64,000 bases of DNA from an uncultured Methanosarcinales archaeon (lineage in GTDB: Archaea; Nanobdellota; Nanobdellia; Woesearchaeales; GW2011-AR15): positions 5,249 to 69,248 of the forward strand of contig CAZEKF010000003.1 in assembly GCA_964512765.1 (NCBI GenBank), in the 5' to 3' direction. A program made the position numbers and the translations under genes. The notes beneath the pieces were generated by a model. That model ran no database searches. It saw only the letters and a list, made by a program, of their open reading frames with translations, and had not been told where the DNA came from. Shown piece after piece: positions 7,902 through 28,223 of this stretch. Every line of letters starts with the position of its first letter. Position 1 is the stretch's first letter.

Positions 7902-7934
7902 TTATTTAATTGATTATTTCTATTATTATAAAGA

Positions 7935-10994: not shown

Positions 10995-11240
10995 TTTTAC
11001 TATTAACCGCCTGGCAAAAGTTTATAGCCCATTACCTTGTTCCAAAAATACAAAAATAAATCAATGCAAAGTGTAAAAATTAACAAGTAAAAGAGTAAGA
11101 TTAATCTAAGGAAAGTTTTCATGATTATTGTTCAGAATTAAACTAAATTTAAAAAAACTATGTGAACAGGAAAAACCTTATAAATGATTTTTTATTTTAG
11201 AATGGTAAAATATCGGGGGACTTAATTATAATACATAAAA

Positions 11241-11513
11241 ATGGCATCTGAGACATTAGAATCATTAAAAATAAAATCTGAATTTTACGAAAAATTGGTT
11301 CATGAAAAAAAACTGAAAAATGATTCCATGAACAAAATATTGTATGAAAAAAATAAACATATAATAGAACTTAACAGAAAAATTGAGTATCTTCTTCAGG
11401 AACAAAAATATGAAATCATAGAAATATTACAATCACTTAGAAAAAACGGTTTTGACGAGAACTTACTTTCACATTTCATTGAAAAATATGACATATCCGA
11501 AATTGACAAATGA
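11241..11513 (+). CDS. small K/E-rich coiled-coil protein, first gene of the rSAM operon
   Basis: 90 aa with heptad-like charged composition and no Cys. The stop overlaps the next start (ATGA). Confidence 0.5.
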   Translation: MASETLESLKIKSEFYEKLVHEKKLKNDSMNKILYEKNKHIIELNRKIEYLLQEQKYEIIEILQSLRKNGFDENLLSHFIEKYDISEIDK

Positions 11514-12004
11514 GAAAAAAACAATCATCAAAAATAGAAAAAGAAAGAGTATTAGAAAAAATCCAATTGTATAAAGAGACCATAAACGAACAAGATGATT
11601 ATTCTGGTCATTTAAACAAATTAATACTTGACAAAGATAAAGAAATTCAGAAGTTAGAAAGTAAGATACAGACTTTGATTAATAAACAAGAAAAAGAGTT
11701 GTACACTATTTTGAACCCTGTACTAAAAAAATTTTTAAAAGACCGTACTGCTGTTAAAGAAAAAGAACATGAAATGCAAGAGTTACATCTTAAAATTGAG
11801 TCAATTGAAGAAACACATAAGGAAATGATCCAGTCGCTTGAAGAAGAACATAAAAAAGAAATTGAAAAATATGAAAATATATTACGTAAAGAAAGAAAAA
11901 CTATTGGTGAGTTTAAATCATCAATATCTTACCCAATATACCAAATGTCTAGTTCTATGGGAAGAACTCAACTCGGGAAGGTTCTTCAGAAACTTTTAAA
12001 ATAG
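11510..12004 (+). CDS. K/E-rich coiled-coil protein
   Basis: 164 aa with long predicted coiled-coil segments (KEIQKLESKIQTLINKQEKEL, EEEHKKEIEKYENILRKERK) and no Cys. Confidence 0.5.
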   Translation: MRKKQSSKIEKERVLEKIQLYKETINEQDDYSGHLNKLILDKDKEIQKLESKIQTLINKQEKELYTILNPVLKKFLKDRTAVKEKEHEMQELHLKIESIEETHKEMIQSLEEEHKKEIEKYENILRKERKTIGEFKSSISYPIYQMSSSMGRTQLGKVLQKLLK

Positions 12005-12056
12005 TCAATAATATTTATAAATCATCAGAATTGATTTAGTCAGGGGGAGATATGTT

Positions 12057-13601
12057 TTGTTAAAGAAATTAGTGTATAAAACTAGTAAGAATAAAGAGTC
12101 TCTTGTTATACTTGGACATAATGCTGAACTGCACGATAGAATTTGTAAAACACAAGGTGATTTTGAATCTAAACTTGAAAATTTAAAAACAACATTATCT
12201 CAACCAATAACAATAGGAATTACAAGACATAATTTCTTTCTATTAGGAGAAATAATTGACTTCATTAACAAGTTCTATTATCAAGAAACTATGTTCAGGA
12301 AAGTTAAAATAACACTTTTCCCTGTGCAAGAACTAAAAACTAATTTCCTCGCATATCTAAAATACCTTAAACAAAAGTCTGGAGATAAGTTCGAGTTCAA
12401 GATAATGGACTCAAAATTGATTGAGTTGTTTGAAACTTTAGGAAATAATTCAACAGGTGATAAATATCAAGACAGAGAACTAATTAGACTGCTCGGAATT
12501 ATATCAGAACATACGTTCATTGGCCCTGAACAAATTGTAATAGATCCATTTCATAAATGTAATACTAATTGTGTACATTGTTGGAACCATGCGCCTACAT
12601 TAGATCTTACAAAAGAATGGAAAGATCAAATATTGAAACCTGATTTTTTAAAACGTTTAATAGACGACGCTGCCAGGTTAAAAGTTGATCTGTTAGTGTT
12701 CGGCGGTGCAGGTGAACCATTAATGTATCCGAAAATAATCGAAATATTTGAATACGCGTCTCAACAAGGGTTAAAGATTATTGTGTCTACCAATGGTATT
12801 AACTTAACAAAAACCATGACAAACAGGTTGTTAAATTGTAACCTGTCAGAGTTAATATGCAGTCTGCCTGCTGCTTCTAATGCAACATATGAAAAAGTTA
12901 ATCCCATGCATAAAAGTAAAAAAACTTTTGAAACAGTAGTTAAGAATCTTAAATATTTCACCAAACAAAAAACATTACTTAGCAAAAAATCAAAACTTAG
13001 CATGTACCATGTAATACATAACCTTAACTACCATGAGATTAAAAACATGGCAAAGCTTGACCTTGATATAGGTGTTGACATTGTTAGATTTAATTTAATT
13101 AGATTACAAAAAGAATTCATGCACTTGAAACTTAACAAAGCTCAATTGAATTCAATAAAAAACAGTATTGATTTTGTTAAAGCATATTACACAAATAAAC
13201 CAATAATATTACAAAACAATATACATTTCCAGATCAAGAATTTCAAGCCAGAAACAGGTGAATGGTCAGGTTCAATATTAAATGACTGGGGTTGTAAGCT
13301 TGGCTGGTTTTTTTCGTTAGTATTAGCGTCCGGCCAGTTAAGCTTGTGCTGCCATGTTAGAGAGATTGAAAATTTGAAAAATAACAATAGTTTCAAAGAA
13401 GCATGGCTTTCAAAACAATACTCAGATTACAGGTTCAAAGCTAAATATATTAAAAATCATAAAAATACAGAGTTTAAAAATAAAGTAAAGTTGTATGATG
13501 ATAAATGTGAAAATTGTGATAATCATGTTACTTTAATAAAAATTGAAGAAAAAATAAAAAAATACAATCTTGGAGAATTTTTTGAGTATAATGGCAGCTA
13601 A
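12057..13601 (+). CDS. radical SAM protein with an N-terminal extension of about 165 aa (array head gene, outlier)
   Basis: TTG start preceded by GGGGGAG. Motifs DPFHKCNTNCVHCWNH, FGGAGEPLMYP and STNG. C-terminal GCKLGWFFSLVLASGQLSLCC (Cx12Gx4C) and CENC. Confidence 0.8.
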   Translation: MLKKLVYKTSKNKESLVILGHNAELHDRICKTQGDFESKLENLKTTLSQPITIGITRHNFFLLGEIIDFINKFYYQETMFRKVKITLFPVQELKTNFLAYLKYLKQKSGDKFEFKIMDSKLIELFETLGNNSTGDKYQDRELIRLLGIISEHTFIGPEQIVIDPFHKCNTNCVHCWNHAPTLDLTKEWKDQILKPDFLKRLIDDAARLKVDLLVFGGAGEPLMYPKIIEIFEYASQQGLKIIVSTNGINLTKTMTNRLLNCNLSELICSLPAASNATYEKVNPMHKSKKTFETVVKNLKYFTKQKTLLSKKSKLSMYHVIHNLNYHEIKNMAKLDLDIGVDIVRFNLIRLQKEFMHLKLNKAQLNSIKNSIDFVKAYYTNKPIILQNNIHFQIKNFKPETGEWSGSILNDWGCKLGWFFSLVLASGQLSLCCHVREIENLKNNNSFKEAWLSKQYSDYRFKAKYIKNHKNTEFKNKVKLYDDKCENCDNHVTLIKIEEKIKKYNLGEFFEYNGS

Positions 13602-15759
13602 GACCGAAATTAATGCGCATGTAATATCTAAGCTTTTAGATAGAATTAATAATAATACAAAACAAAACTTTGTTTTGCCAAAAAAATACGTGTTTTGTAT
13701 AAATGATTCATGTTCATTCAGGTGCAAAATGTGTTTCAACTGGACTAATAAACCCCACCCTGAGTTAACATATGATGACTGGATAAGGAAACTCGAAGAA
13801 ATAAATGAATATGGTTCTGAAAATGTTGAGATTAACATTATTGGTGGTGAACCTTTAGAAATACCTTGGGTGATTGATTTAATAAAACACGCGAAACAAC
13901 TAGGTTTTATTGTAAGTTTGTCAACAAACGGGTATCATCTTAATAAAACAATGGTTAAGAAATTGTGTAACTCTGGTCTTGATGATATATCCATCTCATT
14001 AGACGGGTTTAAAGCGTCCACGCATGACTATGTAAGAGGCATAAATGGATCTTATGATAAACTTATGGAAGGTATGAAACTGTTACAATTGTATTCAAAC
14101 AGGCCTAGAATAAACATTCAAACTTTAATCATGGGATATAACATAGATGAAATTATAGATTTAACAAAGTTTGTTTCAAAATCAAAATTAGTTGATAAGG
14201 GAATAACGTTCATGGCTGTAATGAAACCTAATGATAATGTTTCTGGTAACTGGAGAACGAATTCTGAACTATGGCCAAAAGATATACCTAAAACACTAAA
14301 GACAATTAAAAAATTAATAGAGTTGAAGAAGAAAGGTTACAGAATCCTTAACTCAAATAAACAGTTAAAGGGATTTTATAATTATTTTAAAGAGCCTGAT
14401 TTGTTTGTTAAAAACAAACCATGTAATGTTAAAGATTTTGGCGCGTTCCTTGAAACAACCGGAAATGTATACATATGCCGAGAACTAGGTGAATTAGGAA
14501 ATATTAAACAAGAAAACATAATTGATGTTCTTAATTCTGACATTTCAGATATTACAAGACTAAGCATGGAAAAATGCACAGAAAATTGTAATTATCTAAT
14601 AAACTGTTTTTACCAGGACGAAGATGAAAATAATGATCCTGTTGTAAGTGTAACAAAACCTGTTAGTAAATCTGTATTACTACAACCAGACAAAAAAATT
14701 AAGTTACATACTAACCTGAAAAACGAATTACTCAATAAAAGTTACAAACCTAATTTCTGCTTGTTAATTATATCTAGGGGGTGTCATTACAAGTGTAAGA
14801 TGTGCAATTATTGGAAAGAAGATAAAAAAACTACTCCAACGTTAACTTATGACGAAATAACTACTATTGTTGATGATCTCAAAAGAATAACTGACGAAGA
14901 TATTGTTGTTCATTTAATAGGCGGTGAGTCAATGCTGTTCCCAAGGTTTGTTGATGTTGTAAAATACATACGGTCAAAAGGGTTCAGGTGTTCAGTTTCT
15001 ACTAACGCAAGTTTATTAACAAAGTCAATGGCTAAAAAATTAATAGACGCTGACATGACAGGAATTTTTGTATCCTTGGACAGTCTTGATGAAAAAAAGC
15101 ATGATTATTTACGAGGTACAAAAGGCGCGTATAAAAAAGTAATGAACGCTATTGATAACTTGTACGAGTACAAGGAAAAGGTGAAATCAAAGTTATGCAT
15201 TGGCGTAACTGTTACTATTATGCAACACAATCTCCATGATGTTATCCCAATTGTTGACTGGGCAAATGATAACCCTAAGATAAATGATGTTTTTTTTAAC
15301 GCTGTCATGCAACCGTTTGAAAATCAAGACCAGTCAAAAGACTGGTATAAAAAAGAACAGTATGAAATGATCTGGCCGCAAGATCTTAACGAAGTTCAAG
15401 AAGTTATTGAACAATTAAGAGAGCGTAAGAAAAAAGGTTGGAAAATATCTAACCCTTCATCTCAATTAAAAGTTGTTAAACAATATTTCAAAACACCGTG
15501 GAGTTATGTGAAAAATCTTGGTATTAAATGTCCGAGGGGTGATTTAGCATTAGAAGTTGACGCTTGTGGTAATATTAACATGTGTTTTTATGACGACCCA
15601 ATCGGTAACATTAGAGAAACTAACCTGTACAATGCATGGTATTCACAAAAAATGTTAGAAATCAGGGAAAGGATTAACACTTGCAGTAAAGACTGTGATC
15701 TTGCAGTGAACTGCTTTTACATGTTAAAAAATATTACAGATTATATTAGTGAGGATTGA
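13570..15759 (+). CDS. fused double radical SAM protein (two complete family modules, subgroup D)
   Basis: Module 1 has INDSCSFRCKMCFNW, IIGGEPLE and CTENCNYLINC. Module 2 has ISRGCHYKCKMCNYW, LIGGESML and CSKDCDLAVNC. The ATG at 13591 is a more likely start than the TTG at 13570. Confidence 0.85.
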   Translation: MENFLSIMAAKTEINAHVISKLLDRINNNTKQNFVLPKKYVFCINDSCSFRCKMCFNWTNKPHPELTYDDWIRKLEEINEYGSENVEINIIGGEPLEIPWVIDLIKHAKQLGFIVSLSTNGYHLNKTMVKKLCNSGLDDISISLDGFKASTHDYVRGINGSYDKLMEGMKLLQLYSNRPRINIQTLIMGYNIDEIIDLTKFVSKSKLVDKGITFMAVMKPNDNVSGNWRTNSELWPKDIPKTLKTIKKLIELKKKGYRILNSNKQLKGFYNYFKEPDLFVKNKPCNVKDFGAFLETTGNVYICRELGELGNIKQENIIDVLNSDISDITRLSMEKCTENCNYLINCFYQDEDENNDPVVSVTKPVSKSVLLQPDKKIKLHTNLKNELLNKSYKPNFCLLIISRGCHYKCKMCNYWKEDKKTTPTLTYDEITTIVDDLKRITDEDIVVHLIGGESMLFPRFVDVVKYIRSKGFRCSVSTNASLLTKSMAKKLIDADMTGIFVSLDSLDEKKHDYLRGTKGAYKKVMNAIDNLYEYKEKVKSKLCIGVTVTIMQHNLHDVIPIVDWANDNPKINDVFFNAVMQPFENQDQSKDWYKKEQYEMIWPQDLNEVQEVIEQLRERKKKGWKISNPSSQLKVVKQYFKTPWSYVKNLGIKCPRGDLALEVDACGNINMCFYDDPIGNIRETNLYNAWYSQKMLEIRERINTCSKDCDLAVNCFYMLKNITDYISED

Positions 15760-15765
15760 AAACTT

Positions 15766-16746
15766 ATGAAACAATTATTAAAATCTCCTGAACTAGTTGA
15801 GATAGTCCTTAACTATAACTGTAATTTAAAGTGTAGAATGTGTTATATTTGGAAAAGTAAAGCATTGGCAAATATTTCAATAGCTAGTTTAAAAAAAGTG
15901 ATTGACCAGATTTCTTTGTTCAAAAATAAACCAAAAATTCAGTTCTTAGGCGGTGAAACATTATTATATAAAGACCTGGTAACTGCAATTAAACATGCAT
16001 CTTATAATAAAATAAAAACTTCTGTAATAACAAACGGATTTCTACTAACAAAAGAAAAAATAATTGAGTTATCAGAAGCTGGGTTGTCAGAGATTATTCT
16101 GTCACTGGACTCGACTGATGAAAAAGTACATAATTATTTAAGGGGAAATTCGAAAAGTTATGAAAAAGTTATGAATGCTCTTACCCTGTTAAAAAAGCAC
16201 GGGCCTAGCATTAATGTGTCAATAAACTCAGTTATTACTGCTGTGAATTTGTACAATTTGATAGATTTGCACAAGTATGTTCTAAAAAAGGATCATATAT
16301 CACAGAATTATTTTGTTGTGCTTGAAAAACCGTACAATTCTAATTACAAACATAACTGGAGACATTCAAGCCCTGTTTCATATCTATGGCCGGATGATAT
16401 AAACTTGGTTAACCAGGTGTTTAACGAATTAATAAAGCTAAAACAAGAAACTAATAAAATAGGTAACACTAAATCACAGTTAAAGAAATACAAATCATAC
16501 TATCTTAACCCAGATAATTTCATTAAAAAATCTGGGTGTATGTTTGGTCATGACCATGTACTAATTAACAACAAAGGTGAAGTTTCGTTATGCGGCGGAA
16601 GCAAAGAAATTGGTAAAATTAATTCAGAAAACATTATTGAGTTATGGAACTCTGACAAAGCAAAAGTACGTAGAAAAGAAATGTTAAACTGTAAACAAAA
16701 CTGTGTCCAGATTTTAAGTTGCGTGTATAAAGATGAAGATGCTTAA
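15766..16746 (+). CDS. radical SAM / partial-SPASM paralog, subgroup A
   Basis: Motifs NYNCNLKCRMCYIW, LGGETLLYKDL, ITNG, LEKPYNSNYKHNW...YLWP, GCMFGHDHVLINNKGEVSLC and CKQNCVQILSC. Confidence 0.88.
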   Translation: MKQLLKSPELVEIVLNYNCNLKCRMCYIWKSKALANISIASLKKVIDQISLFKNKPKIQFLGGETLLYKDLVTAIKHASYNKIKTSVITNGFLLTKEKIIELSEAGLSEIILSLDSTDEKVHNYLRGNSKSYEKVMNALTLLKKHGPSINVSINSVITAVNLYNLIDLHKYVLKKDHISQNYFVVLEKPYNSNYKHNWRHSSPVSYLWPDDINLVNQVFNELIKLKQETNKIGNTKSQLKKYKSYYLNPDNFIKKSGCMFGHDHVLINNKGEVSLCGGSKEIGKINSENIIELWNSDKAKVRRKEMLNCKQNCVQILSCVYKDEDA

Positions 16747-17761
16747 CAAATTAATAGGAAAAACCAAGAAAAAGATAATCCAAATAGAACCGCATCTTGA
16801 AAGTGTATCTATTGTAGTCACTAACATGTGCAATTTTAAGTGTAAGATATGCAATTTCTGGAAAAATACTAACAAAGAAGAAATATCTATTACTGATTTA
16901 AAGAAAATTCTTGACAGTGTAGAAAAATTAAATAACGATAAGTTAGTTGTACAGTTCCACGGCGGTGAAACATTATTATATAAAGATTTGATCAAAGCTG
17001 TCCAGTACGCTACGTCTAAAGGTATAAAAACGTCTATTGTTACAAACGGATATTTTCTTAATGAGGAAAAAATTAACCAGTTAAGCAATGCAGGATTGCA
17101 TGATTTAAACATATCTCTTGATTCTATTAACAAGAACCATCATACTTTTCTTAGAGGAATACCGAACAGTCATGATAAAATAATGGATTGTATTAATTAT
17201 ATGAATAATCATCCAGAGAAACTTAATGCTAACATCAACACAGTTATTACCTCTGTTAATATAAAGAGTATTATTGCAACTTCTAGGTTTGTAAATCATC
17301 AAAAAGGTCTGAAAAACATTTATTTTATAGCTTTAGAAAAACCGTATCTAACAAATTATGACAAGAACTGGAGAAAAACAAAACAAGTTGGTTATCTCTG
17401 GCCAAAAGATAAGAAACTAATTAAGAACGTGTTCAAAAATCTTATTACTGAAAAAAAACAAAACAATAAAATCAGTAACTCTATCACACAATTAAAAAAA
17501 TATTGTTCGTATTACTTAAACCCAAGCAAGAACCTGGCAACTCATGACTGTATTTTCGGATACCTTCATTTACATATAAACAGTCTAGGCCAGTTCAGGT
17601 TATGTGCAAACAGGCATGATCTTGATCCAATCGGATTTTTGCCAGAATCTAATATTTACGACGCATGGAAGTCTGGTAAAGCGCAATGGATCAGGAAAAG
17701 AATGCAAGAATGCAAACAAAATTGTGTGTTAAATTTAAGTTGTGTGTATAAAGATGAGTAA
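16733..17761 (+). CDS. radical SAM / partial-SPASM paralog, subgroup A
   Basis: Motifs TNMCNFKCKICNFW, HGGETLLYKDL, LEKPYLTNYDKNW...YLWP and CKQNCVLNLSC. Confidence 0.88.
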   Translation: MKMLNKLIGKTKKKIIQIEPHLESVSIVVTNMCNFKCKICNFWKNTNKEEISITDLKKILDSVEKLNNDKLVVQFHGGETLLYKDLIKAVQYATSKGIKTSIVTNGYFLNEEKINQLSNAGLHDLNISLDSINKNHHTFLRGIPNSHDKIMDCINYMNNHPEKLNANINTVITSVNIKSIIATSRFVNHQKGLKNIYFIALEKPYLTNYDKNWRKTKQVGYLWPKDKKLIKNVFKNLITEKKQNNKISNSITQLKKYCSYYLNPSKNLATHDCIFGYLHLHINSLGQFRLCANRHDLDPIGFLPESNIYDAWKSGKAQWIRKRMQECKQNCVLNLSCVYKDE

Positions 17762-18827
17762 CAGGTTAAAATTATTTCAAAAAATGTATAATCTTACTAA
17801 AAAACCAGATATCTTTTCACAAGATAATTTAACAGAACCATTACCTGCTCCAAGACATGTGTTAGTAGTGTTGCATAATTATTGCAATTTTAAGTGTAAG
17901 ATGTGTAAAGTATGGGACAAAAAAGATTCTGAAAAAATGTCTTTAAAAACATTGTATAAAATAATAAAAGACATTAGTAAATTCAAGAGTAAAGATTTAA
18001 TACTTCATTTTATTGGCGGTGAAACTTTGTTGTTCAAAGACCTTGATAAAGCTATCGCGTATGCTATGCGTAACAGGTTAACTGTTGATATCACTACAAA
18101 TGGGTATGCTCTTAATAAAAATAAAATAATAGCATTGTCTGAAGCAGGTTTAAGAAATATTAATCTTTCCCTTGATTCAAATGAAAAAGAAGTTCATAAT
18201 GAATTAAGAGGTGTCAAGGATAGTTATCAAAAAATTATGAAAGCTATTCCTCTTCTTGGAAAATACGGGAAAAACATTAATGTTAGCATTAATACAGTTA
18301 TTAATTCATTAAACCTTTCCACATTAATCTCGTTATGTAAATATGTTAAACAGGAAAAACATCTTAAAAATTTATATTTTATTGCAATGGAAAAACCGTT
18401 TGAATCAAATTATGATAATGATTGGAGAAAAACAAGCGATGTTGCATATCTATGGCCAGATAATCCAGATAAAATTAATTATGTTTTTGATGCATTGGTC
18501 AAAGAAACGCAAATTAATGAAAAAATTGGGAACACAGTTTCCCAGTTAAACGCGTATAAAAGTTATTACATTCACCCTGATAAATTCATAAAAAAGCTCG
18601 GGTGCAGGTCAGGTTGCACAAACCTTGAGATTAACATGCTCGGTGAAATTTTTCTTTGTGTCCCTAACCCAAAACTTGGAAGATTAGGTAACATTGATTC
18701 AGAAAACATAGTTCAGTTATGGAACTCAGAAAAGGCTTTCCTAATAAGGCAGGAAATGATGTTATGCAAGAATAATTGTTTGCAAGTGTTAAGCTGTGGC
18801 GAGTATGATGAAGAGGTGTTGACATAA
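17742..18827 (+). CDS. radical SAM / partial-SPASM paralog, subgroup A
   Basis: Motifs HNYCNFKCKMCKVW, IGGETLLFKDL, MEKPFESNYDNDW...YLWP and CKNNCLQVLSC. An alternative ATG at 17754 is in frame. Confidence 0.88.
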   Translation: MCIKMSNRLKLFQKMYNLTKKPDIFSQDNLTEPLPAPRHVLVVLHNYCNFKCKMCKVWDKKDSEKMSLKTLYKIIKDISKFKSKDLILHFIGGETLLFKDLDKAIAYAMRNRLTVDITTNGYALNKNKIIALSEAGLRNINLSLDSNEKEVHNELRGVKDSYQKIMKAIPLLGKYGKNINVSINTVINSLNLSTLISLCKYVKQEKHLKNLYFIAMEKPFESNYDNDWRKTSDVAYLWPDNPDKINYVFDALVKETQINEKIGNTVSQLNAYKSYYIHPDKFIKKLGCRSGCTNLEINMLGEIFLCVPNPKLGRLGNIDSENIVQLWNSEKAFLIRQEMMLCKNNCLQVLSCGEYDEEVLT

Positions 18828-18831
18828 AAAA

Positions 18832-19833
18832 ATGATATTAAAAAAAGGTTTAATGTCTAAACAATCTTTATCAGATAAAATTAATGTTTACATATACTTT
18901 GACAAAGCTTGTTTGTTTAAATGCAAACATTGTTTTTTATGGAAAAAAGATATTGGGTTTAACACGATAAAAACTAATGATTGGATGATGATTTTAGAAG
19001 ATATTTTTAGTTTGTTTCACAGCAATATCAGAGTCTGTTTAGGCGGAGATGGTATGTCCCTTACAGAAGAACTGTTCTTTCCAATTATTAAAAAATGTAC
19101 TGAACTTGGTTTTGAAACTGAGTTAGCATCAAATTGTTATCTAATCAATGATAAAATACTTAAGAAATTAATTGCATACGGACTTGACACACTTGTAATT
19201 TCACTTGACTATTTAACAGAAGAAAAACACGATCTTCAGAGAGGTGTCCAAGGAAGTTATCGTCATGCTATTAAGATAATTAAAAAGAGTAAAAAACTTC
19301 CTTTAAAGATTCAATCTAACTGTATCATTATGAAACCAAATCTTGATGAGATAATACCACTTGCAAAAAAAATTGCTTCAATTAATAATGAAATTACACT
19401 TCATTTCCAGGCATTAGTACAACCTTTCAATACAGAATGCAATGAAAACTGGCATGAAACGTTTAGTGATTTATGGCCAAATAACGACACAACTGTCCTT
19501 GAAGTACTTGATGAGTTAATTAAATTAAAAATGTCAGGATATAAAATAGGTAATAACACAGACCAGATCAACTCTTTTAAATCTTATTTTAAAGATCCTA
19601 GTAAAAGCATAAGAACAAAATGTAATGTTAAAGATGTTAGTTTTCACATTCATTCTAACGGAAGATTACGAAAATGTGATTATATGGAAGATATTGGTTT
19701 TATTAATAAAGACAATTCTTTTAAGGATTTAATATTTTCAAACCAGTATAAAAAAGTCACTGAAAAAATGAGGAACTGTACAAAAAATTGTATATTAATG
19801 GTGAATTGTAACTATGAAAAAGAAAAAAGTTAA
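18832..19833 (+). CDS. radical SAM / partial-SPASM paralog, subgroup B
   Basis: Motifs DKACLFKCKHCFLW, LGGDGMSL, IIMKPNLDE, QALVQPFN...LWP and CTKNCILMVNC. Confidence 0.88.
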   Translation: MILKKGLMSKQSLSDKINVYIYFDKACLFKCKHCFLWKKDIGFNTIKTNDWMMILEDIFSLFHSNIRVCLGGDGMSLTEELFFPIIKKCTELGFETELASNCYLINDKILKKLIAYGLDTLVISLDYLTEEKHDLQRGVQGSYRHAIKIIKKSKKLPLKIQSNCIIMKPNLDEIIPLAKKIASINNEITLHFQALVQPFNTECNENWHETFSDLWPNNDTTVLEVLDELIKLKMSGYKIGNNTDQINSFKSYFKDPSKSIRTKCNVKDVSFHIHSNGRLRKCDYMEDIGFINKDNSFKDLIFSNQYKKVTEKMRNCTKNCILMVNCNYEKEKS

Positions 19834-20680
19834 ACTAATTCCAACACTGGAAACTAATTGTAAAAATGTTTTGTTTATTGATAAAAAAGTAGAAAAAACT
19901 ATGTTGAAACTAAGTGACTGTGCAAGTTTATTCAAGTCACTGTCTAATCATAAAGATCAGTTTAACATTATCATTGGCGGTGGCGAACCTTTATTGCACC
20001 CAGAAATTATGGACATGGTTAAATTATGCAAAAAGAATGGCTTAAATTGTTCTTTAGAAACAAATGGGTTATTACTTAAAAAAAATATTATTGATCAGTT
20101 AATTAAACACGGTTTGGATACTCTCATCCTCCCGCTTGAATCTGTTAACCCAAGAACGCATAATTTTATCTGGAACAACCAAGATCTGTTTGAAATTATC
20201 TGGGAAGCTATAGATCATTTATCATACAAGTATGAAAACAGTGCAAAACTAATTTTTAAATGTACAATAATGAAACAGAACTTGCGTGAAATATTACCTA
20301 CTATGGGCTGGGTCATTAACTTTAATTATGCAAAAATAAAATTTTTGCCTATCTCACCAGATTCTAGCAAAGACAAGGAATGGCACACTAAAAAACCTTA
20401 CATCAGCGCCTGGCCAAAAAACAAAGAGATATTTGAAAAAACAATGGATTATTTAAATAAAACAAAACTAAATTATCCGGGTATATTAATTAATGAATTA
20501 GATGATTTTTATAGTTTCAAAAAATATTATTTTGACCATAAAAACTGGGTAATGACACCGGGTTCTTTTGAAGATGATACAATGTATGTTAATCCAGACA
20601 GTTCTGTACTATTTCAAAACAAAACTATCGGAAACATTAGTAAGGAATCATTAATAAAAATATTACAAAAAATAAAATAG
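19814..20680 (+). CDS. pseudo-radical-SAM paralog (family fold retained, all Fe-S Cys motifs absent)
   Basis: Intact 288-aa ORF with IIGGGEPLLHPE, ETNG, LPLESVNPRTHNF and EWHTKKPYISAWP. It has no CX3CX2C, no Cx12Gx4C and no C-terminal Cx3Cx5C. Confidence 0.8.
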   Translation: MKKKKVKLIPTLETNCKNVLFIDKKVEKTMLKLSDCASLFKSLSNHKDQFNIIIGGGEPLLHPEIMDMVKLCKKNGLNCSLETNGLLLKKNIIDQLIKHGLDTLILPLESVNPRTHNFIWNNQDLFEIIWEAIDHLSYKYENSAKLIFKCTIMKQNLREILPTMGWVINFNYAKIKFLPISPDSSKDKEWHTKKPYISAWPKNKEIFEKTMDYLNKTKLNYPGILINELDDFYSFKKYYFDHKNWVMTPGSFEDDTMYVNPDSSVLFQNKTIGNISKESLIKILQKIK

Positions 20681-20690
20681 TTTCATAGTT

Positions 20691-21785
20691 ATGAATTTTA
20701 CAATTAAAAAACGTTTGATAACAGAATTTGCAAAAAGAGCATATGATAGCCAAGTATACAGTCTTGATTATTTGAATGTTAATATCATTGAAGGTTGTAT
20801 TTCAAAGTGTATTATGTGTGATTTATGGAAAAATAAAGTAAAAAAACTCAGCTTTGCTGATTTTTCAAAAGCGCTCGACATTATTTCATCTCATCTTTCT
20901 TTATCAAAAGATATTATGATTAGCATTGGCGGCCACGGAGAACCAATGATGAACTCTGATATTTTTGAAATTATTAAATTATGCAAAAATAAAGGATTCT
21001 CTACTAGCTTGGTAACAAATTCATTGTTAATAACAAAAAATAGTGCGTATAGCTTGATATCAAGTGGGTTGGCACATATAAATTTCTCATTTGAAAGTAT
21101 AGACACTAAGATTAATGATCTGATTAGAAATGCCAAAGGCCATCATAAAAAAGTTTTGAAATCAATCGAACTTTTGCATAAGTTAAAGCAAAAACATAAT
21201 AAAAAATGTGATCTTGGTTTTCTAACAACTGTTTGTGCAAAAAATATCTGTTCAATTCCAGATTTAGTTAGGTATGTGAACAACAATCCAATGATATCTT
21301 CTATAAGGTTCCAAGCAATTACCCAACCTTTTGGCGCGTCGCCTGTTAAAAACTGGCACACCAACCAAAAATATGCGTTCCTATGGCCTAAAAAATCTGA
21401 TGTGGAAAAAGTGTACAATTTTTTAATTAAAATAAAAAATAGTTCAAAAATTGAAAATTCGTTAAGGTCATTAAAAACTCAGAAAACGTACTTTTTAAAT
21501 CCTGGTAAATATAACAAACATATATCCAAAACTTGTAATGTTTACCAAGGTGCTATAATGAATGTTAATGGTGATATAACAGTATGTCCTATGGGCGAAA
21601 ATATTTTTACTCCTATTGGAAAAAATGTGATTATTAATATTAATAATGAAAAACCAAACGTATACTTGATTAGGAAGAGATTGCTTAAAATTCAAAATCT
21701 TGTTAAAAAATGCAGCATGAACAATTGTCATATAATGTTAAACTGTAATTATACAGGCAAAGAACAATTTTATGATAAGATTTAA
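20691..21785 (+). CDS. radical SAM / partial-SPASM paralog, subgroup C
   Basis: Motifs IEGCISKCIMCDLW, GGHGEPMMN, VTNSLL, QAITQPFG...FLWP and CSMNNCHIMLNC. Confidence 0.88.
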   Translation: MNFTIKKRLITEFAKRAYDSQVYSLDYLNVNIIEGCISKCIMCDLWKNKVKKLSFADFSKALDIISSHLSLSKDIMISIGGHGEPMMNSDIFEIIKLCKNKGFSTSLVTNSLLITKNSAYSLISSGLAHINFSFESIDTKINDLIRNAKGHHKKVLKSIELLHKLKQKHNKKCDLGFLTTVCAKNICSIPDLVRYVNNNPMISSIRFQAITQPFGASPVKNWHTNQKYAFLWPKKSDVEKVYNFLIKIKNSSKIENSLRSLKTQKTYFLNPGKYNKHISKTCNVYQGAIMNVNGDITVCPMGENIFTPIGKNVIININNEKPNVYLIRKRLLKIQNLVKKCSMNNCHIMLNCNYTGKEQFYDKI

Positions 21786-21799
21786 CCGAGGATGGACAT

Positions 21800-22861
21800 A
21801 TGACAGTTCTTAAAACAAAAAAAGTTGTAAGGTTAGAAAATAAGTTAACAAAAAACCTTCAATCTAATACATTATTGTATAATAAAGAAGTTAAAAAAGT
21901 CACGCTTCTTTTTGGTTCGCGATGTGTTTTCAAATGTAAGCATTGTTTTAATTGGCGGTTTAAAAATAATTTTGACAGGATATCACTTGAAGAATGGATA
22001 TCTTTACTTGAAAATATTAAGAAGCTAAACAAAGGTAAGGTAAAAATCGATATTGGTGCTAGTGGTATGGCATTGTTAAGCGAATATTTAATACCTGTTG
22101 TAATGAAATGCAATCAACTTGGGTATAAAATTTTATTGAACACTAACGGTTATCTTTTTAATGAAAGAATTGTAAAAAAGCTTGTTAAATCTGGTTTAAA
22201 CAAATTTTCAATATCAATAGATTTTTTTTCTCCGAAAAAACATGATGATCAAAAAGGCATGGTGAACAGTCATAAACACGCACTTAATTTAATCAGATAC
22301 GTAAAAAAACACAGCGGTTCTAACAGGATCAGTATAAGTACGATTATTATGAAACCAAACCTTAACGAATTAGTTCCCTTGATAAAATGGACAAATTCAA
22401 TGAACATCCCAATTTTTTTTCAAGCAATTACGCAACCTTACAATACACCAGATCAAAAGTATTGGTATAAAGATAATAAGTATAAAAACCTGTGGCCAGG
22501 TGATAGCAAGAAAATGTCAACCATTCTTGATAAAATCATTGAACTCAGAAAAAAAGGTTATAACGTTGGGAATGATGTTAACCATTTACATGCTTTAAAA
22601 AAATATTTTTTATATCCTCAAAAAAGAATAATGCCAACTTGTAACATAAACAATGTTGGGTTATTGATTGACTCTTCAGGTTGCGTGAAAGCATGTCCAT
22701 ACATGGAAAATATTGATAATCTGCGCAATGTTCCAATAACTTCACTGGTTGAGTCTCAAAAATATATAAAAACTATAAATAAAATGTGTGACTGTCCAAC
22801 AAATTGTGCGCAAATGATAAACTGTAGTTATAAAGATTATCCTGTTTCATTAATAGAGTAA
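21800..22861 (+). CDS. radical SAM / partial-SPASM paralog, subgroup B
   Basis: GAGGA about 12 nt upstream of the ATG. Motifs GSRCVFKCKHCFNW, IIMKPNLNE, QAITQPYN...NLWP and CPTNCAQMINC. Confidence 0.88.
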   Translation: MTVLKTKKVVRLENKLTKNLQSNTLLYNKEVKKVTLLFGSRCVFKCKHCFNWRFKNNFDRISLEEWISLLENIKKLNKGKVKIDIGASGMALLSEYLIPVVMKCNQLGYKILLNTNGYLFNERIVKKLVKSGLNKFSISIDFFSPKKHDDQKGMVNSHKHALNLIRYVKKHSGSNRISISTIIMKPNLNELVPLIKWTNSMNIPIFFQAITQPYNTPDQKYWYKDNKYKNLWPGDSKKMSTILDKIIELRKKGYNVGNDVNHLHALKKYFLYPQKRIMPTCNINNVGLLIDSSGCVKACPYMENIDNLRNVPITSLVESQKYIKTINKMCDCPTNCAQMINCSYKDYPVSLIE

Positions 22862-22866
22862 TAAAA

Positions 22867-23886
22867 ATGCTAAGAAAATTATTAAAACATAAAAGAAAAG
22901 TAAAACCTTTAGTTCCTGCACCTCAATCTGTTGTTATTGGTTTGAATAACGCCTGTAACTTCAAATGCAAAATGTGCCATATTTGGAAAAATAAAAATGT
23001 TATTGAGATTCCTTTAAAAAAAATTATTAATATCATTGACCAAGTAAGTTTGTTTAATAATAAAGATTTAGTGTTACAGTTTCATGGTGGAGAAACTTTA
23101 CTTTATAAAGATTTAACAAAAGCAATTTCTTATGCATCAAAAAAAAATATTAAAACTGCTATTGTAACAAACGGATTTTTTCTTGACCAAAAAAAGATTA
23201 TTGAGTTAAATCAAGCAGGATTACACAGTTTGAACATTTCACTGGATTCAATTGAAAAAGATGTTCATAATGAGTTGAGAGGAATAAAGAATAGTTATCA
23301 AAAAATTATGCAAGCCATTGAATTCCTCGGTGAATATAATCACAACATGATTGTTGGAATAAACACAATTATTCATTCTTTAAACATTACAAAACTAGTT
23401 GAGATTAGTAGATTTGTAAAAGATAACCAGAATGTTTCAAACCTTTATTTCATATCACTGGAAAAACCTTATGAATCTGATTATGACAATTCGTGGTATG
23501 ATAGCAGTCCTGCATCTTATTTATGGCCTACAAATAAAGATGTAATCAATCAAGCGTTTGATGCATTGAAAATTGAGAAATTCACTAATAAAAAAATTAC
23601 TAACAAAAGCACTCAACTTGAAAAGTATAAAGAATATTATCTGAACCCAGATAATTTCATTAAAAAGTACGGGTGCAAATTTGGTCAGATTCAGATTCAC
23701 ATTAATTATTCCAATGAAGTACGATTATGTACTATCAGGCCTGAACTGGAACCAATTGGAACAATAGATGATAACCTTATCACTATCTGGAACTCTGAAA
23801 AAGCAAAACTGATCAGGCGTCAAATGACAAACTGTAAAAAAAACTGTATATTAATCTTAAGTTGTGGGTTTGAAGATGAGGAATAA
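22867..23886 (+). CDS. radical SAM / partial-SPASM paralog, subgroup A
   Basis: Motifs NNACNFKCKMCHIW, HGGETLLYKDL, LEKPYESDYDNSW...YLWP and CKKNCILILSC. Confidence 0.88.
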   Translation: MLRKLLKHKRKVKPLVPAPQSVVIGLNNACNFKCKMCHIWKNKNVIEIPLKKIINIIDQVSLFNNKDLVLQFHGGETLLYKDLTKAISYASKKNIKTAIVTNGFFLDQKKIIELNQAGLHSLNISLDSIEKDVHNELRGIKNSYQKIMQAIEFLGEYNHNMIVGINTIIHSLNITKLVEISRFVKDNQNVSNLYFISLEKPYESDYDNSWYDSSPASYLWPTNKDVINQAFDALKIEKFTNKKITNKSTQLEKYKEYYLNPDNFIKKYGCKFGQIQIHINYSNEVRLCTIRPELEPIGTIDDNLITIWNSEKAKLIRRQMTNCKKNCILILSCGFEDEE

Positions 23887-23947
23887 ATTATCAACTGAAG
23901 ATTTAAAAACAAATACCTTATCTGTTAAAAGAAGATAAAATACAAAA

Positions 23948-25051
23948 ATGAATCAAACAAAACAGTTCAAAAATAAAATAAAACCTGAGTTTGCATGTAT
24001 TGGGATAACAGATTATTGTTTTTTCAAGTGTAAAATGTGCAATAAATGGCAGGAAGATATAAAAGTTATAAAAGGCACGCCTCGTCCAACATTTGAACAA
24101 TATAAACTGTTCATAGAAGATCTTGCATATTTAGTAAGAGACGATCTAAAAGGACCAGTTGACAACAGGTTCACGTTAAACTTTGCCGGTGGTGAAGCAT
24201 TGACACATTCAATGACTCTTCCTCTTGTTGAATATGCTGCTAAATTAGGGTTTAAAACACTTATTGCTACAAACGGAAGTATGCTCACTGAACATATGAT
24301 AAAAAGACTTAACCAAGCTAAACTTACCTCTCTAAGCATATCATTAGACAGTTTAGATCCAGAAATACATGATTCATTACGAGGTTACAAAGGCGCGACA
24401 AAATTTATCATGGCTGCTCTTGAACATTTAAAAAAGTATGAATATCCAAAAGTTGGAATTTGTACAGTAATAAACAAAAAAACATACAAAGGAATTCCTG
24501 AACTTGTTAACTGGGCGAGAAAACATGAAACTGTAAAATGGCTTTATTTCATGGCAGTCATGCAGCCTAACAACACAGTTTTTGAACCAGGATGGTATAA
24601 AACTGATCAGTTTAAGTTTTTATGGGAAAACAAGTCAGAGAAAGTTATTGAAATTATTGATTATCTTATCAAAGAAAAGATTGTTGAAGATGAAGCTGTA
24701 AAAAATAATAACCTCAAACAACCTTTGTTAACAAACAACTTCTCTCAGTTAAAAGCTTTCCGGGATTATTTCGCTAATCCTGAAACGTTTGTAAAAAGCA
24801 ACTCGTGTTGTAACATGGACCTGGCAATACAAACAACTGAAGTAGGCGATATTTTCATGTGTTTTCATAAAAAAAGGATAGGTAACATACGGGAAAATAG
24901 ATTAAAAGATGTTTGGAATACTGATGGATCTGATGTGACAAGAGAAGATATTAAATCATGCACAACAAACTGTCACACTCTTTTAAACTGTTACTATGAA
25001 AATGAATATCCTTTTGAAATTATCAAAACCATAAAATCCAGTTTAAAATAA
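23948..25051 (+). CDS. radical SAM / partial-SPASM paralog, subgroup D
   Basis: Motifs TDYCFFKCKMCNKW, AGGEALTH, ATNG, MAVMQPNN...FLW and CTTNCHTLLNC. Confidence 0.88.
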   Translation: MNQTKQFKNKIKPEFACIGITDYCFFKCKMCNKWQEDIKVIKGTPRPTFEQYKLFIEDLAYLVRDDLKGPVDNRFTLNFAGGEALTHSMTLPLVEYAAKLGFKTLIATNGSMLTEHMIKRLNQAKLTSLSISLDSLDPEIHDSLRGYKGATKFIMAALEHLKKYEYPKVGICTVINKKTYKGIPELVNWARKHETVKWLYFMAVMQPNNTVFEPGWYKTDQFKFLWENKSEKVIEIIDYLIKEKIVEDEAVKNNNLKQPLLTNNFSQLKAFRDYFANPETFVKSNSCCNMDLAIQTTEVGDIFMCFHKKRIGNIRENRLKDVWNTDGSDVTREDIKSCTTNCHTLLNCYYENEYPFEIIKTIKSSLK

Positions 25052-25056
25052 AAAAA

Positions 25057-26049
25057 ATGCAAGTATTAAAACCTGTTTATTCAGATATTGGTATCATTGA
25101 ATCGTGTAATTTTAAATGCATTATGTGTAAAATGCACGAAATACCTTTTCCAAAAAAAGATGCAATGATTCCAATACAAAGATGGAAACTTTTTTTTCAA
25201 CATATGAAAGAAATAGCGGGTGAAGGGTTTGTGTTTAATATGCCAGGAGGCGAACCTTTGTTACATCCAGACGTGTTTGATATCATAAAAATCGCGTCAA
25301 CTAATGGTCTGAAACCATTGTTATCAACAAACGCGTTTTTAATTAACAAACAAATAGCTGATAAACTCATAAAAAACGGTTTATTTGGAGTTACAATTTC
25401 TTTAGACAGTTCAATTCCAGATGTACATGATCAAATAAGAGGAGTGAGAGAAAGTTTTGATAAAGTTGAACAAGCAATAAGATACCTTGATTTTCACAGT
25501 AAAATCTACAACGCAAAGGTTAGTATTGGCATCCAGTCAGTTATACAAATGTCTAACCTGGATAATATTCCTGATTTGGTTCAGTATGTTGAAAACAATC
25601 CTTTGATTGAAAGAATTAATTTAAACTTATTAATGAGACCTAACAATTCTAAGGAGGATAAGGAATGGTACAAGAACGAGTTCAAGGAATTGTGGCCTGA
25701 TGATTCTGATAAAGTTGATCAGATAATAGATGAATTAGTTGAATTAAAAGCTAAAAATAAAGTTCAAAAATTGTTGAACACAATAACACAGCTTAAATCA
25801 TACAAAGAATATTTCCGTGATCCAAAAAAAACACCAAAATTGTTAAGTTGCAATTATGACAAAGCCATCTGTACAAATAGTTCAGGCGACATTCATCTGT
25901 GCTTTCATTATGATAAGATAGGTAATATCAATACAGACAGGTTAATTGATGTCTGGAATTCAAAACAAGCAAAAACTGTTCGTGAAAAAATTAAGAATTG
26001 TCACGTAACAGACTGTTGGTTCAGATTAAATTGTTTATACAGTGATTAA
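25057..26049 (+). CDS. radical SAM / partial-SPASM paralog, subgroup D
   Basis: Motifs IESCNFKCIMCKMH, PGGEPLLHPD, STNA, LLMRPNN...ELWP and CHVTDCWFRLNC. Confidence 0.88.
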   Translation: MQVLKPVYSDIGIIESCNFKCIMCKMHEIPFPKKDAMIPIQRWKLFFQHMKEIAGEGFVFNMPGGEPLLHPDVFDIIKIASTNGLKPLLSTNAFLINKQIADKLIKNGLFGVTISLDSSIPDVHDQIRGVRESFDKVEQAIRYLDFHSKIYNAKVSIGIQSVIQMSNLDNIPDLVQYVENNPLIERINLNLLMRPNNSKEDKEWYKNEFKELWPDDSDKVDQIIDELVELKAKNKVQKLLNTITQLKSYKEYFRDPKKTPKLLSCNYDKAICTNSSGDIHLCFHYDKIGNINTDRLIDVWNSKQAKTVREKIKNCHVTDCWFRLNCLYSD

Positions 26050-27118
26050 TAAAATGTTACAATATTTACAAACAGAGGTTAATAAGTTCTTAGCAAACAT
26101 TAGAATGACAAATCAAGCTTCCGGTGTGAAAAAAGAAATTATCTTTCCCGTAAGTAACAAACCAAAACAAATTTCATTATTATTTTCGCATCGTTGTTTG
26201 TTCAAGTGCAAACAATGTTTTCTGTGGAAAAGAGAAAATAATTATGAACCGTTAAAGTTAGACACGTGGAGTACATTATTAAAAGATCTCAAAAAAATAT
26301 ATGGTTCTAACTTAAATATTCAAATTGGTGGAGACGGTATGGCAGAGATAAATGAAAAACTTATCACAATAATAAAAACCTGTTCTGAACTTGGACTTCA
26401 TACTGTATTCACTACCAATGCTTATTTAGTTAATAGAAGAATCCTAAAACGAATAGTTGATGAAGCTGGTTTGAAAAATCTGTTATTTTCACTTGATTAT
26501 ATGGTAGCTGAAAAACATGATAATCAAAGAGGAATAAAATATAGTTATAAGCATGTGCTTGATTTACTAGAACATGTTGAAAAATATGAAAATCTAGAAA
26601 TTGTTTTAAGTTGCATTATAATGAAACCTAATCTTGATGAAATATTAGATATTGTTAAATTTGTTGATCAGTTAAAACAAGTGGATAGGGTCTTTTTTCA
26701 GGTAATTTCTCAACCTATGGGCTTAAACTTTGACTATAATTGGTATAAAGATAAAAAATTCTGTTTTCTCTGGCCTGATAAAGATAAAGCTGCCCGGATC
26801 ATTGATGAACTTATTACGTTGAAGAAAAATGGTTCAAAGATAGCTAATTCACTCAATCATTTAAGATATTTTAAATATTATTTTTTGAATCCTAACAAAT
26901 ATATAAAAGACAACAGATGCAATGCTGAAGACCTTGGCATGGAAATTGGCATTGATGGCAATGTCAGTATATGTAACAAAATGAGAAATCTGGGTTCTTT
27001 AAAAAAACATTCAATTTCAGAGTTATTAGCCATGAACTATAAAAGTATTGCTGGAGAGATATCAAACTGTTCTCTAAACTGTCATCAGGTTATGAATTGC
27101 AGGTTTTCAGAAGAGTGA
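26042..27118 (+). CDS. radical SAM / partial-SPASM paralog, subgroup B (tandem duplicate copy 1)
   Basis: Motifs SHRCLFKCKQCFLW, IGGDGMAE, IIMKPNLDE and CSLNCHQVMNC. The track start is a GTG. The in-frame ATG at 26054 (MLQYLQ...) is more likely. Confidence 0.88.
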   Translation: MINKMLQYLQTEVNKFLANIRMTNQASGVKKEIIFPVSNKPKQISLLFSHRCLFKCKQCFLWKRENNYEPLKLDTWSTLLKDLKKIYGSNLNIQIGGDGMAEINEKLITIIKTCSELGLHTVFTTNAYLVNRRILKRIVDEAGLKNLLFSLDYMVAEKHDNQRGIKYSYKHVLDLLEHVEKYENLEIVLSCIIMKPNLDEILDIVKFVDQLKQVDRVFFQVISQPMGLNFDYNWYKDKKFCFLWPDKDKAARIIDELITLKKNGSKIANSLNHLRYFKYYFLNPNKYIKDNRCNAEDLGMEIGIDGNVSICNKMRNLGSLKKHSISELLAMNYKSIAGEISNCSLNCHQVMNCRFSEE

Positions 27119-28191
27119 TTAATAAAATGTTACAATATTTACAAATAGAGGTTAGTAAGTTTTTAGCAAATATTGGAGTAACAAAACCTGCTTCATTTAT
27201 TAAAAAAGAAATTATCAATCCAGTAAGCGAAAAACAAAAGCAAATTTCATTATTATTTTCGCATCGTTGTTTGTTCAAGTGCAAACAATGTTTTCTGTGG
27301 AAAAGAGAAAATAATTATGAACCGTTAAAGTTAGACACGTGGATTACATTATTAAAAGATCTTAAAAAAGTGTATGGTCATAACCTAAAAATTGAAATTG
27401 GTGGAGATGGTATGGGTGAGGTAAATGAAGGTCTTCTCACAATAATAAAAACCTGTTCTGACCTAGGATTTAATACAACGTTCACAACAAATGCTTATTT
27501 AATAAACAGGAGGATCCTAAAACGAATAATTGATGAAACAGGTTTGAAATGTCTAGTGTTCTCTCTTGACTACACGACTCCTGAAAAACATGATAATCAA
27601 AGAGGCATGAACAATAGTTATAAGCATGTGCTTGATTTACTTGAACATGTTAAAGCGTTTGAAGTACAAGAAGTTGTATTAAGTTGTATTATCATGAAAC
27701 CTAATCTTAGCGAACTAATACAAATTACAAAGTTTGTTGATCAATCAAAACAAATAACACAAGTACAGTTCCAGGCTATTGCTGAACCTCTTGGGCTTGC
27801 ATTTTCTGAACCTTGGTTCCAAGATAAAAACTACAGTTATTTATGGCCTGGCACATCAAAAGTTACAAAAGTTATTGATAATTTAATTGAAATGAAAAAA
27901 AAAGGATCAAAAATTGCTAATTCTATTAGTCAGTTAAATTATTTTAAACATTATTTTAAACATCCTTTAAAATACGCAAAAAAAAATAGTTGTAATGCTG
28001 AAAATCTTGGCATGGAAATTGATGTTGATGGTCAAGTGAGTATTTGTAACAGAATGAAAAAGTTGGGTTCATTAAAACAACATTCAATCTCTGAGTTGTT
28101 GGCAATAAATTATAAAATATTAGCTAAAGAAATATCAAACTGTTCTCTGAACTGTCACCTCATCATGAACTGCAGGTTTTCAGAAGAATAA
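27097..28191 (+). CDS. radical SAM / partial-SPASM paralog, subgroup B (tandem duplicate copy 2)
   Basis: Motifs SHRCLFKCKQCFLW, IGGDGMGE, IIMKPNLSE and CSLNCHLIMNC. By homology with copy 1 the real start is probably the ATG at 27127 (MLQYLQ...). Confidence 0.88.
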   Translation: MQVFRRVINKMLQYLQIEVSKFLANIGVTKPASFIKKEIINPVSEKQKQISLLFSHRCLFKCKQCFLWKRENNYEPLKLDTWITLLKDLKKVYGHNLKIEIGGDGMGEVNEGLLTIIKTCSDLGFNTTFTTNAYLINRRILKRIIDETGLKCLVFSLDYTTPEKHDNQRGMNNSYKHVLDLLEHVKAFEVQEVVLSCIIMKPNLSELIQITKFVDQSKQITQVQFQAIAEPLGLAFSEPWFQDKNYSYLWPGTSKVTKVIDNLIEMKKKGSKIANSISQLNYFKHYFKHPLKYAKKNSCNAENLGMEIDVDGQVSICNRMKKLGSLKQHSISELLAINYKILAKEISNCSLNCHLIMNCRFSEE

Positions 28192-28223
28192 TTATATAAA
28201 ACAATAAATAATGTACAAAAACA

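Follow-up and report, generated by a model that had tools for sequence, protein, structure and literature searches.

Two radical SAM modules in one open reading frame of an archaeal paralog array: an apparently young fusion of neighboring genes

When two members of an enzyme family are found joined in a single polypeptide, does the join mean that they act together, or only that they once were neighbors? The question is raised by the second gene of a tandem array of radical S-adenosylmethionine (SAM) genes on contig CAZEKF010000003.1 (assembly GCA_964512765.1) of an uncultured archaeon, within a stretch of 64,000 nucleotides (nt) that we call the window. A first-pass annotation, made from the letters of the window, described this gene as two complete family modules in one 729-residue polypeptide, and proposed that at least two family members act together, as a heterodimer or on the same substrate, with the unfused neighbors perhaps also working as complexes. 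The two-module observation is correct, far beyond chance. The fusion is real but of an ordinary kind, and modestly supports a shared pathway; the best explanation overall, which we hold somewhat more probable than all others taken together, is a genuine bifunctional two-module gene that arose by the one-base merger of two overlapping neighbors.

Two modules in one frame

The gene is a single open frame from a TTG codon at 13570 to 15759 on the forward strand. An in-frame ATG at 13591, which gives a 722-residue form also present in Joint Genome Institute (JGI) gene calls (P0001), is the likelier start than the TTG; with this start, there is an 11-nt overlap with the stop of the preceding gene (ATGGCAGCTAA). 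Residue positions of motifs use the 722-residue numbering. The parts of the gene are as follows, where pLDDT is the predicted local distance difference test score.

13570..15759, forward strand: fused open reading frame, 729 residues from TTG, 722 residues from ATG 13591
13591..14622, forward strand: module 1, residues 1-344, radical SAM core and five-cysteine partial-SPASM domain, ending in the usual family tail CFYQDE
13711..13734, forward strand: CX3CX2C of module 1 (CSFRCKMC), ligands of the radical SAM [4Fe-4S] cluster, columns invariant in the family alignment
14422..14607, forward strand: auxiliary-cluster cysteines of module 1, CX13GX4C (278-296) and CX3CX5C (329-339), from the alignment
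14623..14682, forward strand: disordered tether, residues 345-364 (DENNDPVVSVTKPVSKSVLL), pLDDT below 50
14683..15756, forward strand: module 2, residues 365-722, radical SAM core and five-cysteine partial-SPASM domain, from Pfam, the family profile and the predicted model
14686..14733, forward strand: leader helix of module 2, residues 366-381, counterpart of module 1 helix 2-21 in the predicted model and alignment
14782..14805, forward strand: CX3CX2C of module 2 (CHYKCKMC), columns invariant in the family alignment
15529..15714, forward strand: auxiliary-cluster cysteines of module 2, CX12GX4C (647-665) and CX3CX5C (698-708), from the alignment

Pfam, the profile and the motifs agree on two full modules. 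PF04055 (Radical_SAM) matches two stretches of the open reading frame (153.5 bits in total against a cut-off of 29.5), and so does PF13186 (SPASM; 34.9 bits against 21.5). A family profile of 334 positions, built from the single-module paralogs of the window, matches residues 20-352 with 298 bits (model positions 13-333) and residues 375-721 with 310 bits (model positions 4-330). All seven motif types of the first-pass annotation are present in both modules: CX3CX2C, the signature of the radical SAM superfamily, at residues 41 and 398; GGE at 85 and 444; TNG at 112, which in module 2 reads TNA (471) and so departs from the annotation; SLD..HD..RG at 136 and 495; W..WP at 221 and 585; CX(n)GX4C at 278 and 647; and CX3CX5C at 329 and 698. 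The linker that had been put at about 50 residues is, as written there, 45 residues long (343-387, nt 14617-14751).

The modules are only 31% identical to each other (336 columns), and each keeps intact the three radical SAM and five C-terminal cysteines that are conserved without exception in 20 family members. A canonical SPASM domain has seven cysteines (CX9-15GX4C - CX2CX5CX3C - C) that hold two auxiliary clusters. With five per module (CX12-13GX4C and CX3CX5C) instead of the canonical seven, the auxiliary domain here is best named partial SPASM or twitch-like. The leader helix of module 2 is homologous to the final part of the 80-90-residue leaders of the stand-alone proteins P0002, P0003 and P0006. 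The only in-frame start candidates for module 2 are TTG 14761, seven residues before the first cysteine, and ATG 14800, within the motif itself, so module 2 lacks a usable in-frame start and can be produced only within the fusion.

The join and its origin

Two adjacent genes could appear as one if a base had been missed in an A-run or if paralogs had been mis-joined during assembly, and there is some reason to consider this: the frame hangs on one base in a homopolymer-rich region of 29% GC, and the join was inspected on assembled contigs, which hide minority alleles. However, eight public runs contain the stretch (eight samples and two studies, of marine and seawater metagenomes), and over 14300-15000 the Logan contigs of all eight show 0 differences and 0 gaps relative to the window (word depths of about 4-14); the interval 12000-17000 is identical in four of them. 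Further contigs from JGI, NCBI and ENA match base for base across the join, and in the protein collection the 722-residue product occurs on 13 contigs and the 729-residue product on 11. The stop codon or frameshift between the halves, which the first-pass annotation had named as the sign of an error, was thus looked for in independent run assemblies and is in none of them. The halves, being only 31% identical, offer no repeat for an assembly to collapse. The critical run is only four A's long, and the RNA libraries of both studies are Illumina paired-end (for the DNA runs no platform is recorded). A query with module 1 against 5.8 billion proteins found no near-identical split product of about 354 residues (best match 60%), and scans of genome and metagenome contigs found no unfused allele with five A's or another junction length, a weak negative because records of the window's own genome or of a very near one were possibly excluded. 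We therefore regard an assembly artifact as very unlikely, and give it the smallest share of belief among the explanations weighed here. One candidate for a split allele, P0055 (319 residues), was rejected, since it results from a scaffold gap of ten Ns at 14708-14710 on a contig that is otherwise identical. All runs carry one clonal genotype and are not evolutionarily independent.

Separately, a contig in each of four runs joins position 16736 to 16829 through 125 other letters (a replacement, not a deletion), on flanks of just 20 nt; paralogs that cross-match at the gene start at 16733 are the probable cause, and not a real variant.

How were the two frames joined? Stand-alone paralogs stop within a few codons of the CFYQDE-type tail, the point at which the frame of module 1 runs on. 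Two further features lie there.

14624..14647, forward strand: likely relic of the own start of module 2, ATG 14624 in the +1 frame, within the GAT GAA codons of the D-E tail; the frame closes after seven codons (MKIMILL, then stop)
14627..14630, forward strand: run of four A's, the simplest site for a frame-restoring base

One extra A in this run restores a first gene of 354 residues ending in QDEDEK and a second of 378 residues starting with MKNNDPVV, which overlap by 11 nt (ATGAAAAATAA). When the position of the inserted base was scanned, a +1 change restored two complete genes within 14627-14645 and nowhere else. The same layout, a downstream ATG inside the upstream tail, is seen at the live junctions 16733, 17754 and 19814 (overlaps of 8-20 nt), and the 44 junctions between family genes in five arrays include 15 overlaps and 23 gaps of 0-15 nt. 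At its start, the P0002 gene (ATGAAAAAAATG) also resembles the window (ATGAAAATAATG), a likeness that is suggestive but not significant in A-rich sequence.

These observations suggest a history in which two neighboring, translationally coupled array genes overlapped, the downstream ATG lying within the D-E tail codons of the upstream gene. Loss of one base inside the overlap would have merged the frames, removing the stop of the first gene and the independent start of the second together. We consider a one-base deletion within such a start/stop overlap the simplest history of the fusion and give it a somewhat better than even chance. Such a deletion would suffice, so that selection is not needed to explain the join.

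Length changes at A-runs have marked another member of the family in the window. A paralog at 41767-42815 (open reading frames 41908..42399 and 42357..42818) is split by a frameshift at a run of eleven A's (42363-42373), identical in contigs of four runs, and at 41797-41806 there is another run, of ten A's. The split paralog could be a pseudogene or carry a slippage-prone, phase-variable-like tract. Insertions and deletions at A-runs shape this family in this genome.

Orthologs and other multi-module chains

The first-pass annotation had suggested a search for homologs with separate halves, and these exist. In a maximum-likelihood tree with 62 modules, taken from the window, its relatives' contigs and database hits, module 1 groups with the stand-alone proteins L1_6956 (that is, P0056; 353 residues, 58% identical) and P0007 (401 residues, 60%) with support 100/100, and module 2 with the stand-alone P0002 (416 residues, 77%), P0003 (411 residues, 73%) and P0006 (401 residues, 62%) with support 100/99. 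The separate, strongly supported clades mean that the halves are distinct orthologous groups and not recent duplicates of each other. Orthologs of the halves are separate genes on the relatives' contigs L001, L002 and L003. On L001, the two stand at 6956-8017 and 10001-11251 with two genes in between; on L003, the module-2 ortholog is adjacent to a gene of the type found at 15766 in the window and heads its operon behind 159 nt of non-coding DNA. The closest named relative with a module-2 ortholog is the metagenome-assembled archaeon isolate SI037_bin40. The pair thus shows the Rosetta-stone pattern, fused in one genome and separate in others. The separate parts do not consistently occur together: L001 is the only informative contig with both, and G010, a genome of the same family that is 89% complete, has a module-2 ortholog (76% identical) and a best module-1 match of only 33%. 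Open frames in G010 (704 residues) and G003 (848 residues) that had seemed to be further fusions proved on direct analysis to be single genes.

Among other database proteins, no second pairing of a module-1 type with a module-2 type was found, and this pairing is unique to one clonal population. Within other fused chains, the only place of the module-2 type is the N-terminal half, in P0004, P0005 and P0067, where its partner is not of the module-1 type, so partners appear interchangeable and not obligate. The fusion looks like a young, lineage-specific join of two neighboring genes. Since one identical genotype is present in all runs, strain variation cannot date it.

A second arrangement at this locus is shared more widely. 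The head gene of the array (12057..13601, 514 residues, with an extra N-terminal domain of about 150 residues) immediately precedes a module-1-type gene at each of the three loci where module 1 occurs (the window, L001:5383-6954 and L002:191-1492), an adjacency better conserved than the fused pairing.

A join so young might be a mere accident, neutral or mildly harmful, with one half on its way to inactivation and carried as a passenger domain. Its restriction to one clonal population and the sufficiency of a single-base origin fit this account, as do the frameshift at the eleven A's, which indicates that the array tolerates such lesions, and the roughly 21 paralogs in a 1.5-Mb genome, which make redundancy plausible. 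The halves themselves speak otherwise. Every invariant cysteine and motif is kept in both, both are predicted to fold with high confidence, and the 58 residues that separate the last cysteine of module 1 from the first of module 2 should leave them free to fold. Neither branch is elongated (0.27 and 0.15 for the modules, against 0.23-0.29 and 0.12-0.18 for the stand-alone orthologs), so no acceleration is visible. We consider an accident of this sort improbable.

Joined modules are in any case no rarity here; multi-module architecture is a recurrent habit of the family. When 1.84 billion representatives were scanned in full with HMMER and the family profile, 2,523 proteins were found at E <= 1e-30, and among the 150 best-scoring representatives 31 carry 2-4 modules per chain, a count that is not a frequency estimate because ranking by total bits favors multi-module chains. 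At least six independent double-module combinations can be told apart in the tree. P0004 and P0005 have two modules in 718 residues, and P0008-P0010, from Omnitrophota, two in 691-718 residues. P0011-P0017 (669-671 residues, Candidatus Omnitrophota, 72-84% identical to one another) join an N-terminal module that lacks CX3CX2C to an intact C-terminal one. There are also fusions to family 2 glycosyltransferases (GT2), with two modules in P0020 and one in P0022. As a group, the uncharacterized multi-module chains P0004, P0005, P0008-P0017, P0020 and P0066-P0203, from Omnitrophota and related metagenomes, resemble the fused gene of the window in belonging to the same family (E-values of 1e-78 to 1e-261), in having 2-4 modules and in their poorly conserved linkers of 30-60 residues; they differ from it in that none has a module-1-type half and in that they are bacterial, whereas the window is archaeal.

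Several further chains are of interest in their own right. The contig L001, which has stand-alone orthologs of both halves, also encodes an unrelated double of 729 residues (17013-19202, P0052), in which the N-terminal half is paralogous to the gene directly upstream and the C-terminal half is of the window's 15766 type; it is an independent fusion in an array of the same kind. In G001, of the same genus, a chain of 949 residues (L024:2110-4959) combines an array-type module with two Radical_SAM stretches in all, and in G012, of the same family, one of 1431 residues (L021:2249-6544) combines an array-type module with other radical SAM domains, three Radical_SAM stretches in all, and a B12-binding domain. 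P0011-P0017 are the fused counterpart of the stand-alone cysteine-less paralog in the window at 19814..20680. The gene family is common to this marine archaeal lineage and to the bacterial Candidatus Omnitrophota at about 30-35% identity (L026-L028, P0008, P0010, P0017), and is patchy within the archaeal genus, with 1-9 copies in five congeners against 21 here. This shared but patchy distribution suggests transfer between domains together with rapid gain and loss.

What the two modules may do

The closest architectural precedent is FbiC, the CofG-CofH fusion of Actinobacteria, in which each domain has its own CX3CX2C and whose halves are separate elsewhere; it is usually read as two radical steps of one pathway. 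The fused gene of the window is like FbiC in having two complete radical SAM domains per chain, with the halves as separate genes in other lineages. It differs in that CofG and CofH are not of SPASM type, are non-paralogous, cooperate obligately in a defined joint reaction and were fused long ago, the fusion being conserved across a phylum, whereas the halves here are paralogs from a tandem array and their fusion is confined to one population. Neither CofG nor CofH is among the best 25 of 51 NCBIfam matches of the halves, and the likeness is architectural only. Literature searches on the family, on radical SAM arrays of DPANN archaea and Omnitrophota, and on proteins with two radical SAM domains returned nothing relevant beyond a mention that F0 synthase has two radical SAM domains (PMC11917521).

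Closer in domain type are the SPASM and twitch enzymes SkfB, SuiB, CteB, anSMEcpe, BlsE, DesII and BtrN, which share a partial TIM-barrel core followed by a cysteine-rich auxiliary-cluster domain. By sequence profile the best structure match is SkfB (1.8e-26), and by fold the best are SuiB, SkfB and BlsE (TM-score 0.69), with anSME at about 0.6. These enzymes are only 13-24% identical to the modules, none is a two-module chain, and the modules here have their five invariant C-terminal cysteines. Maturases of peptides made on the ribosome and modified after translation, such as the SkfB, SuiB and CteB class, work with a precursor peptide and a recognition element (RRE, PqqD-like); Pfam scans of eight array proteins found no RRE domain. 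The named families that score highest for the modules and their neighbors are GeoRSP (TIGR04303), SynChlorMet ScmE/ScmF and NirJ2/AhbD, and no tested member reaches the cut-off of any of the NCBIfam equivalogs NirJ2, AhbD, TIGR04053, W_rSAM_matur, MoaA, prokaryotic viperin, GeoRSP or BlsE. The best scores are 162.8 against 500 bits for NirJ2 (both modules summed), 133.6 against 180 for viperin and 139.7 against 284 for MoaA. With scores so far under the curated cut-offs of the cassette families with several radical SAM genes (97.6 against 400 in another case), the gene is not a member of them.

The gene context gives a different kind of hint. The host genome has 1.53 Mb, is 97% complete and has a GC content of about 29%; the archaeal model gives its small-subunit rRNA fragment 645 bits. 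Across the genome the family has about 21 strong members.

12057..29231, forward strand: array of 15 head-to-tail radical SAM genes (16 modules), the fused gene second, with gaps of -20 to +61 nt

A satellite copy lies at 34115..35197, and the stand-alone cysteine-less paralog (19814..20680) has been kept within the array. The array is flanked by GT2 and family 4 glycosyltransferases, an NAD-dependent epimerase, a polysaccharide deacetylase of carbohydrate esterase family 4 (CE4) and a PMT_2-type membrane protein, and further by a GDSL hydrolase, B12-binding radical SAM enzymes and a large membrane protein with a spermine-synthase-like domain. Together with the GT2 fusions of other members, this context suggests that the family probably acts on glycans. 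Two overlapping open reading frames rich in lysine and glutamate (90 and 164 residues) precede the array in the window at 11241..12004, and on L001, open reading frames of 84, 164 and 134 residues adjoin the array on the opposite strand. The two in the window (11241..11513 and 11510..12004) match no Pfam family, and no precursor peptide was seen, although no systematic search for short peptides was made. A scan with bacterial promoter and terminator models gave no excess over shuffled sequences, the models being inapplicable to an archaeon.

In the explanation that we prefer, each module would use its CX3CX2C to hold the SAM-cleaving [4Fe-4S] cluster and its five C-terminal cysteines for one or more auxiliary clusters. 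Joined by the disordered tether of about 20 residues and the leader helix of module 2, the two would form a bifunctional enzyme whose active sites act independently, and they may each catalyze a different radical tailoring step on a shared pathway intermediate. The substrate would most likely be a sugar or a lipid-linked glycan, to judge from the surrounding glycosyltransferase, deacetylase and epimerase genes. The fusion would fix a 1:1 ratio and keep the modules together; it would require no specific interface between them, and may be selectively neutral.

Several observations weigh against this explanation. The nearest structures are of mixed, generic kinds, from enzymes that modify peptides, sugars or nucleotides (SuiB, SkfB, BlsE, DesII, anSME, viperin, MoaA, PqqE), and so generic a SPASM/twitch likeness indicates no substrate. 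Concerning the origin, chance could account for the ATG in the D-E tail, since any GAT GAx holds one and the genome is rich in A and T. The orthologs of module 2 moreover have leaders some 37 residues longer, so that a larger out-of-frame deletion is an origin no less legitimate. The sampled population is clonal, with one genotype in all runs, which bears on both the age of the fusion and selection on it. Of the words sampled from the stretch, none occurs in metatranscriptome runs from these studies. On the independence of the two modules, finally, structure prediction has no power, as its control indicates.

That prediction was made with AlphaFold2 on the fused protein and an alignment of 20 sequences. 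Mean pLDDT is 83.5, with 90-96 in both cores, and the predicted template modeling score (pTM) is 0.51, with no confident relative placement of the modules. MAFFT put the module-1 orthologs on the C-terminal half, so that the N-terminal half of the model rests on only 13 double-module sequences. A control fusion from an older, conserved clade, P0013 (whose relatives are 72-84% identical to it), gave a disordered linker and a pTM of 0.54. Since the control scores alike, AlphaFold2 cannot tell an interface from none at this alignment depth, and we dropped pTM as a test of contact between the modules.

Alternatively, the modules could be obligate partners that form a heterodimer, their array neighbors forming complexes likewise, and the fusion could have been selected because it stabilizes the pair. 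Fusions do recur in the family, with 2-4 modules in 31 of the 150 best representatives and no fewer than six independent double combinations; the joining of a cysteine-less to an active module in the Omnitrophota proteins P0011-P0017 is sensible mainly if modules cooperate in cis; and a stand-alone cysteine-less paralog is retained in the array. This particular pair, however, shows little sign of dependence. It is limited to one clonal population, its orthologs are two genes apart in L001, G010 has module 2 with no detectable module 1, partners are exchanged in P0004, P0005 and P0067, and AlphaFold2 predicts no confident interface, a weak test as the control shows. To our knowledge, characterized SPASM enzymes, for example anSME, SuiB and CteB, act without a paralogous partner. 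An obligate partnership thus seems unlikely. Of the proposal that two family members act together, the weaker version, a common pathway or substrate, is consistent with Rosetta-stone logic and with the frequent fusions in the family, and one tightly packed operon already implied as much before the fusion. The stronger version, a heterodimer or complex, finds no support in the distribution of the pair or in the pTM of 0.51, and the one-base origin accounts for the join on its own.

Taken alone, then, the fusion is of small importance: a further multi-module chain, in a family in which these make up about a fifth of the top-scoring representatives, and explained by a single base change. It is of value as a clean, datable case of neighbors being turned into bifunctional proteins by tightly packed, overlapping operons, and as two modules at a fixed 1:1 ratio for which P0056 and P0002 are natural split controls. 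It also offers a handle on a large uncharacterized radical SAM family (E <= 1e-30; about 2,500 clusters at 50% identity), which sits in glycan loci and takes up as much as 17 kb of genomes of 1-2 Mb; the surrounding array and the family are more interesting than the fusion itself. A bolder idea, to which we give little credence, is that the array is a physically associated radical tailoring line for a surface glycan, common to marine DPANN-like archaea and Omnitrophota. If this were true, neighboring modules would dock, the independent fusions, this young one included, would be successive captures of real contacts, and the map of fusions across genomes could be read as a wiring diagram of the machine.

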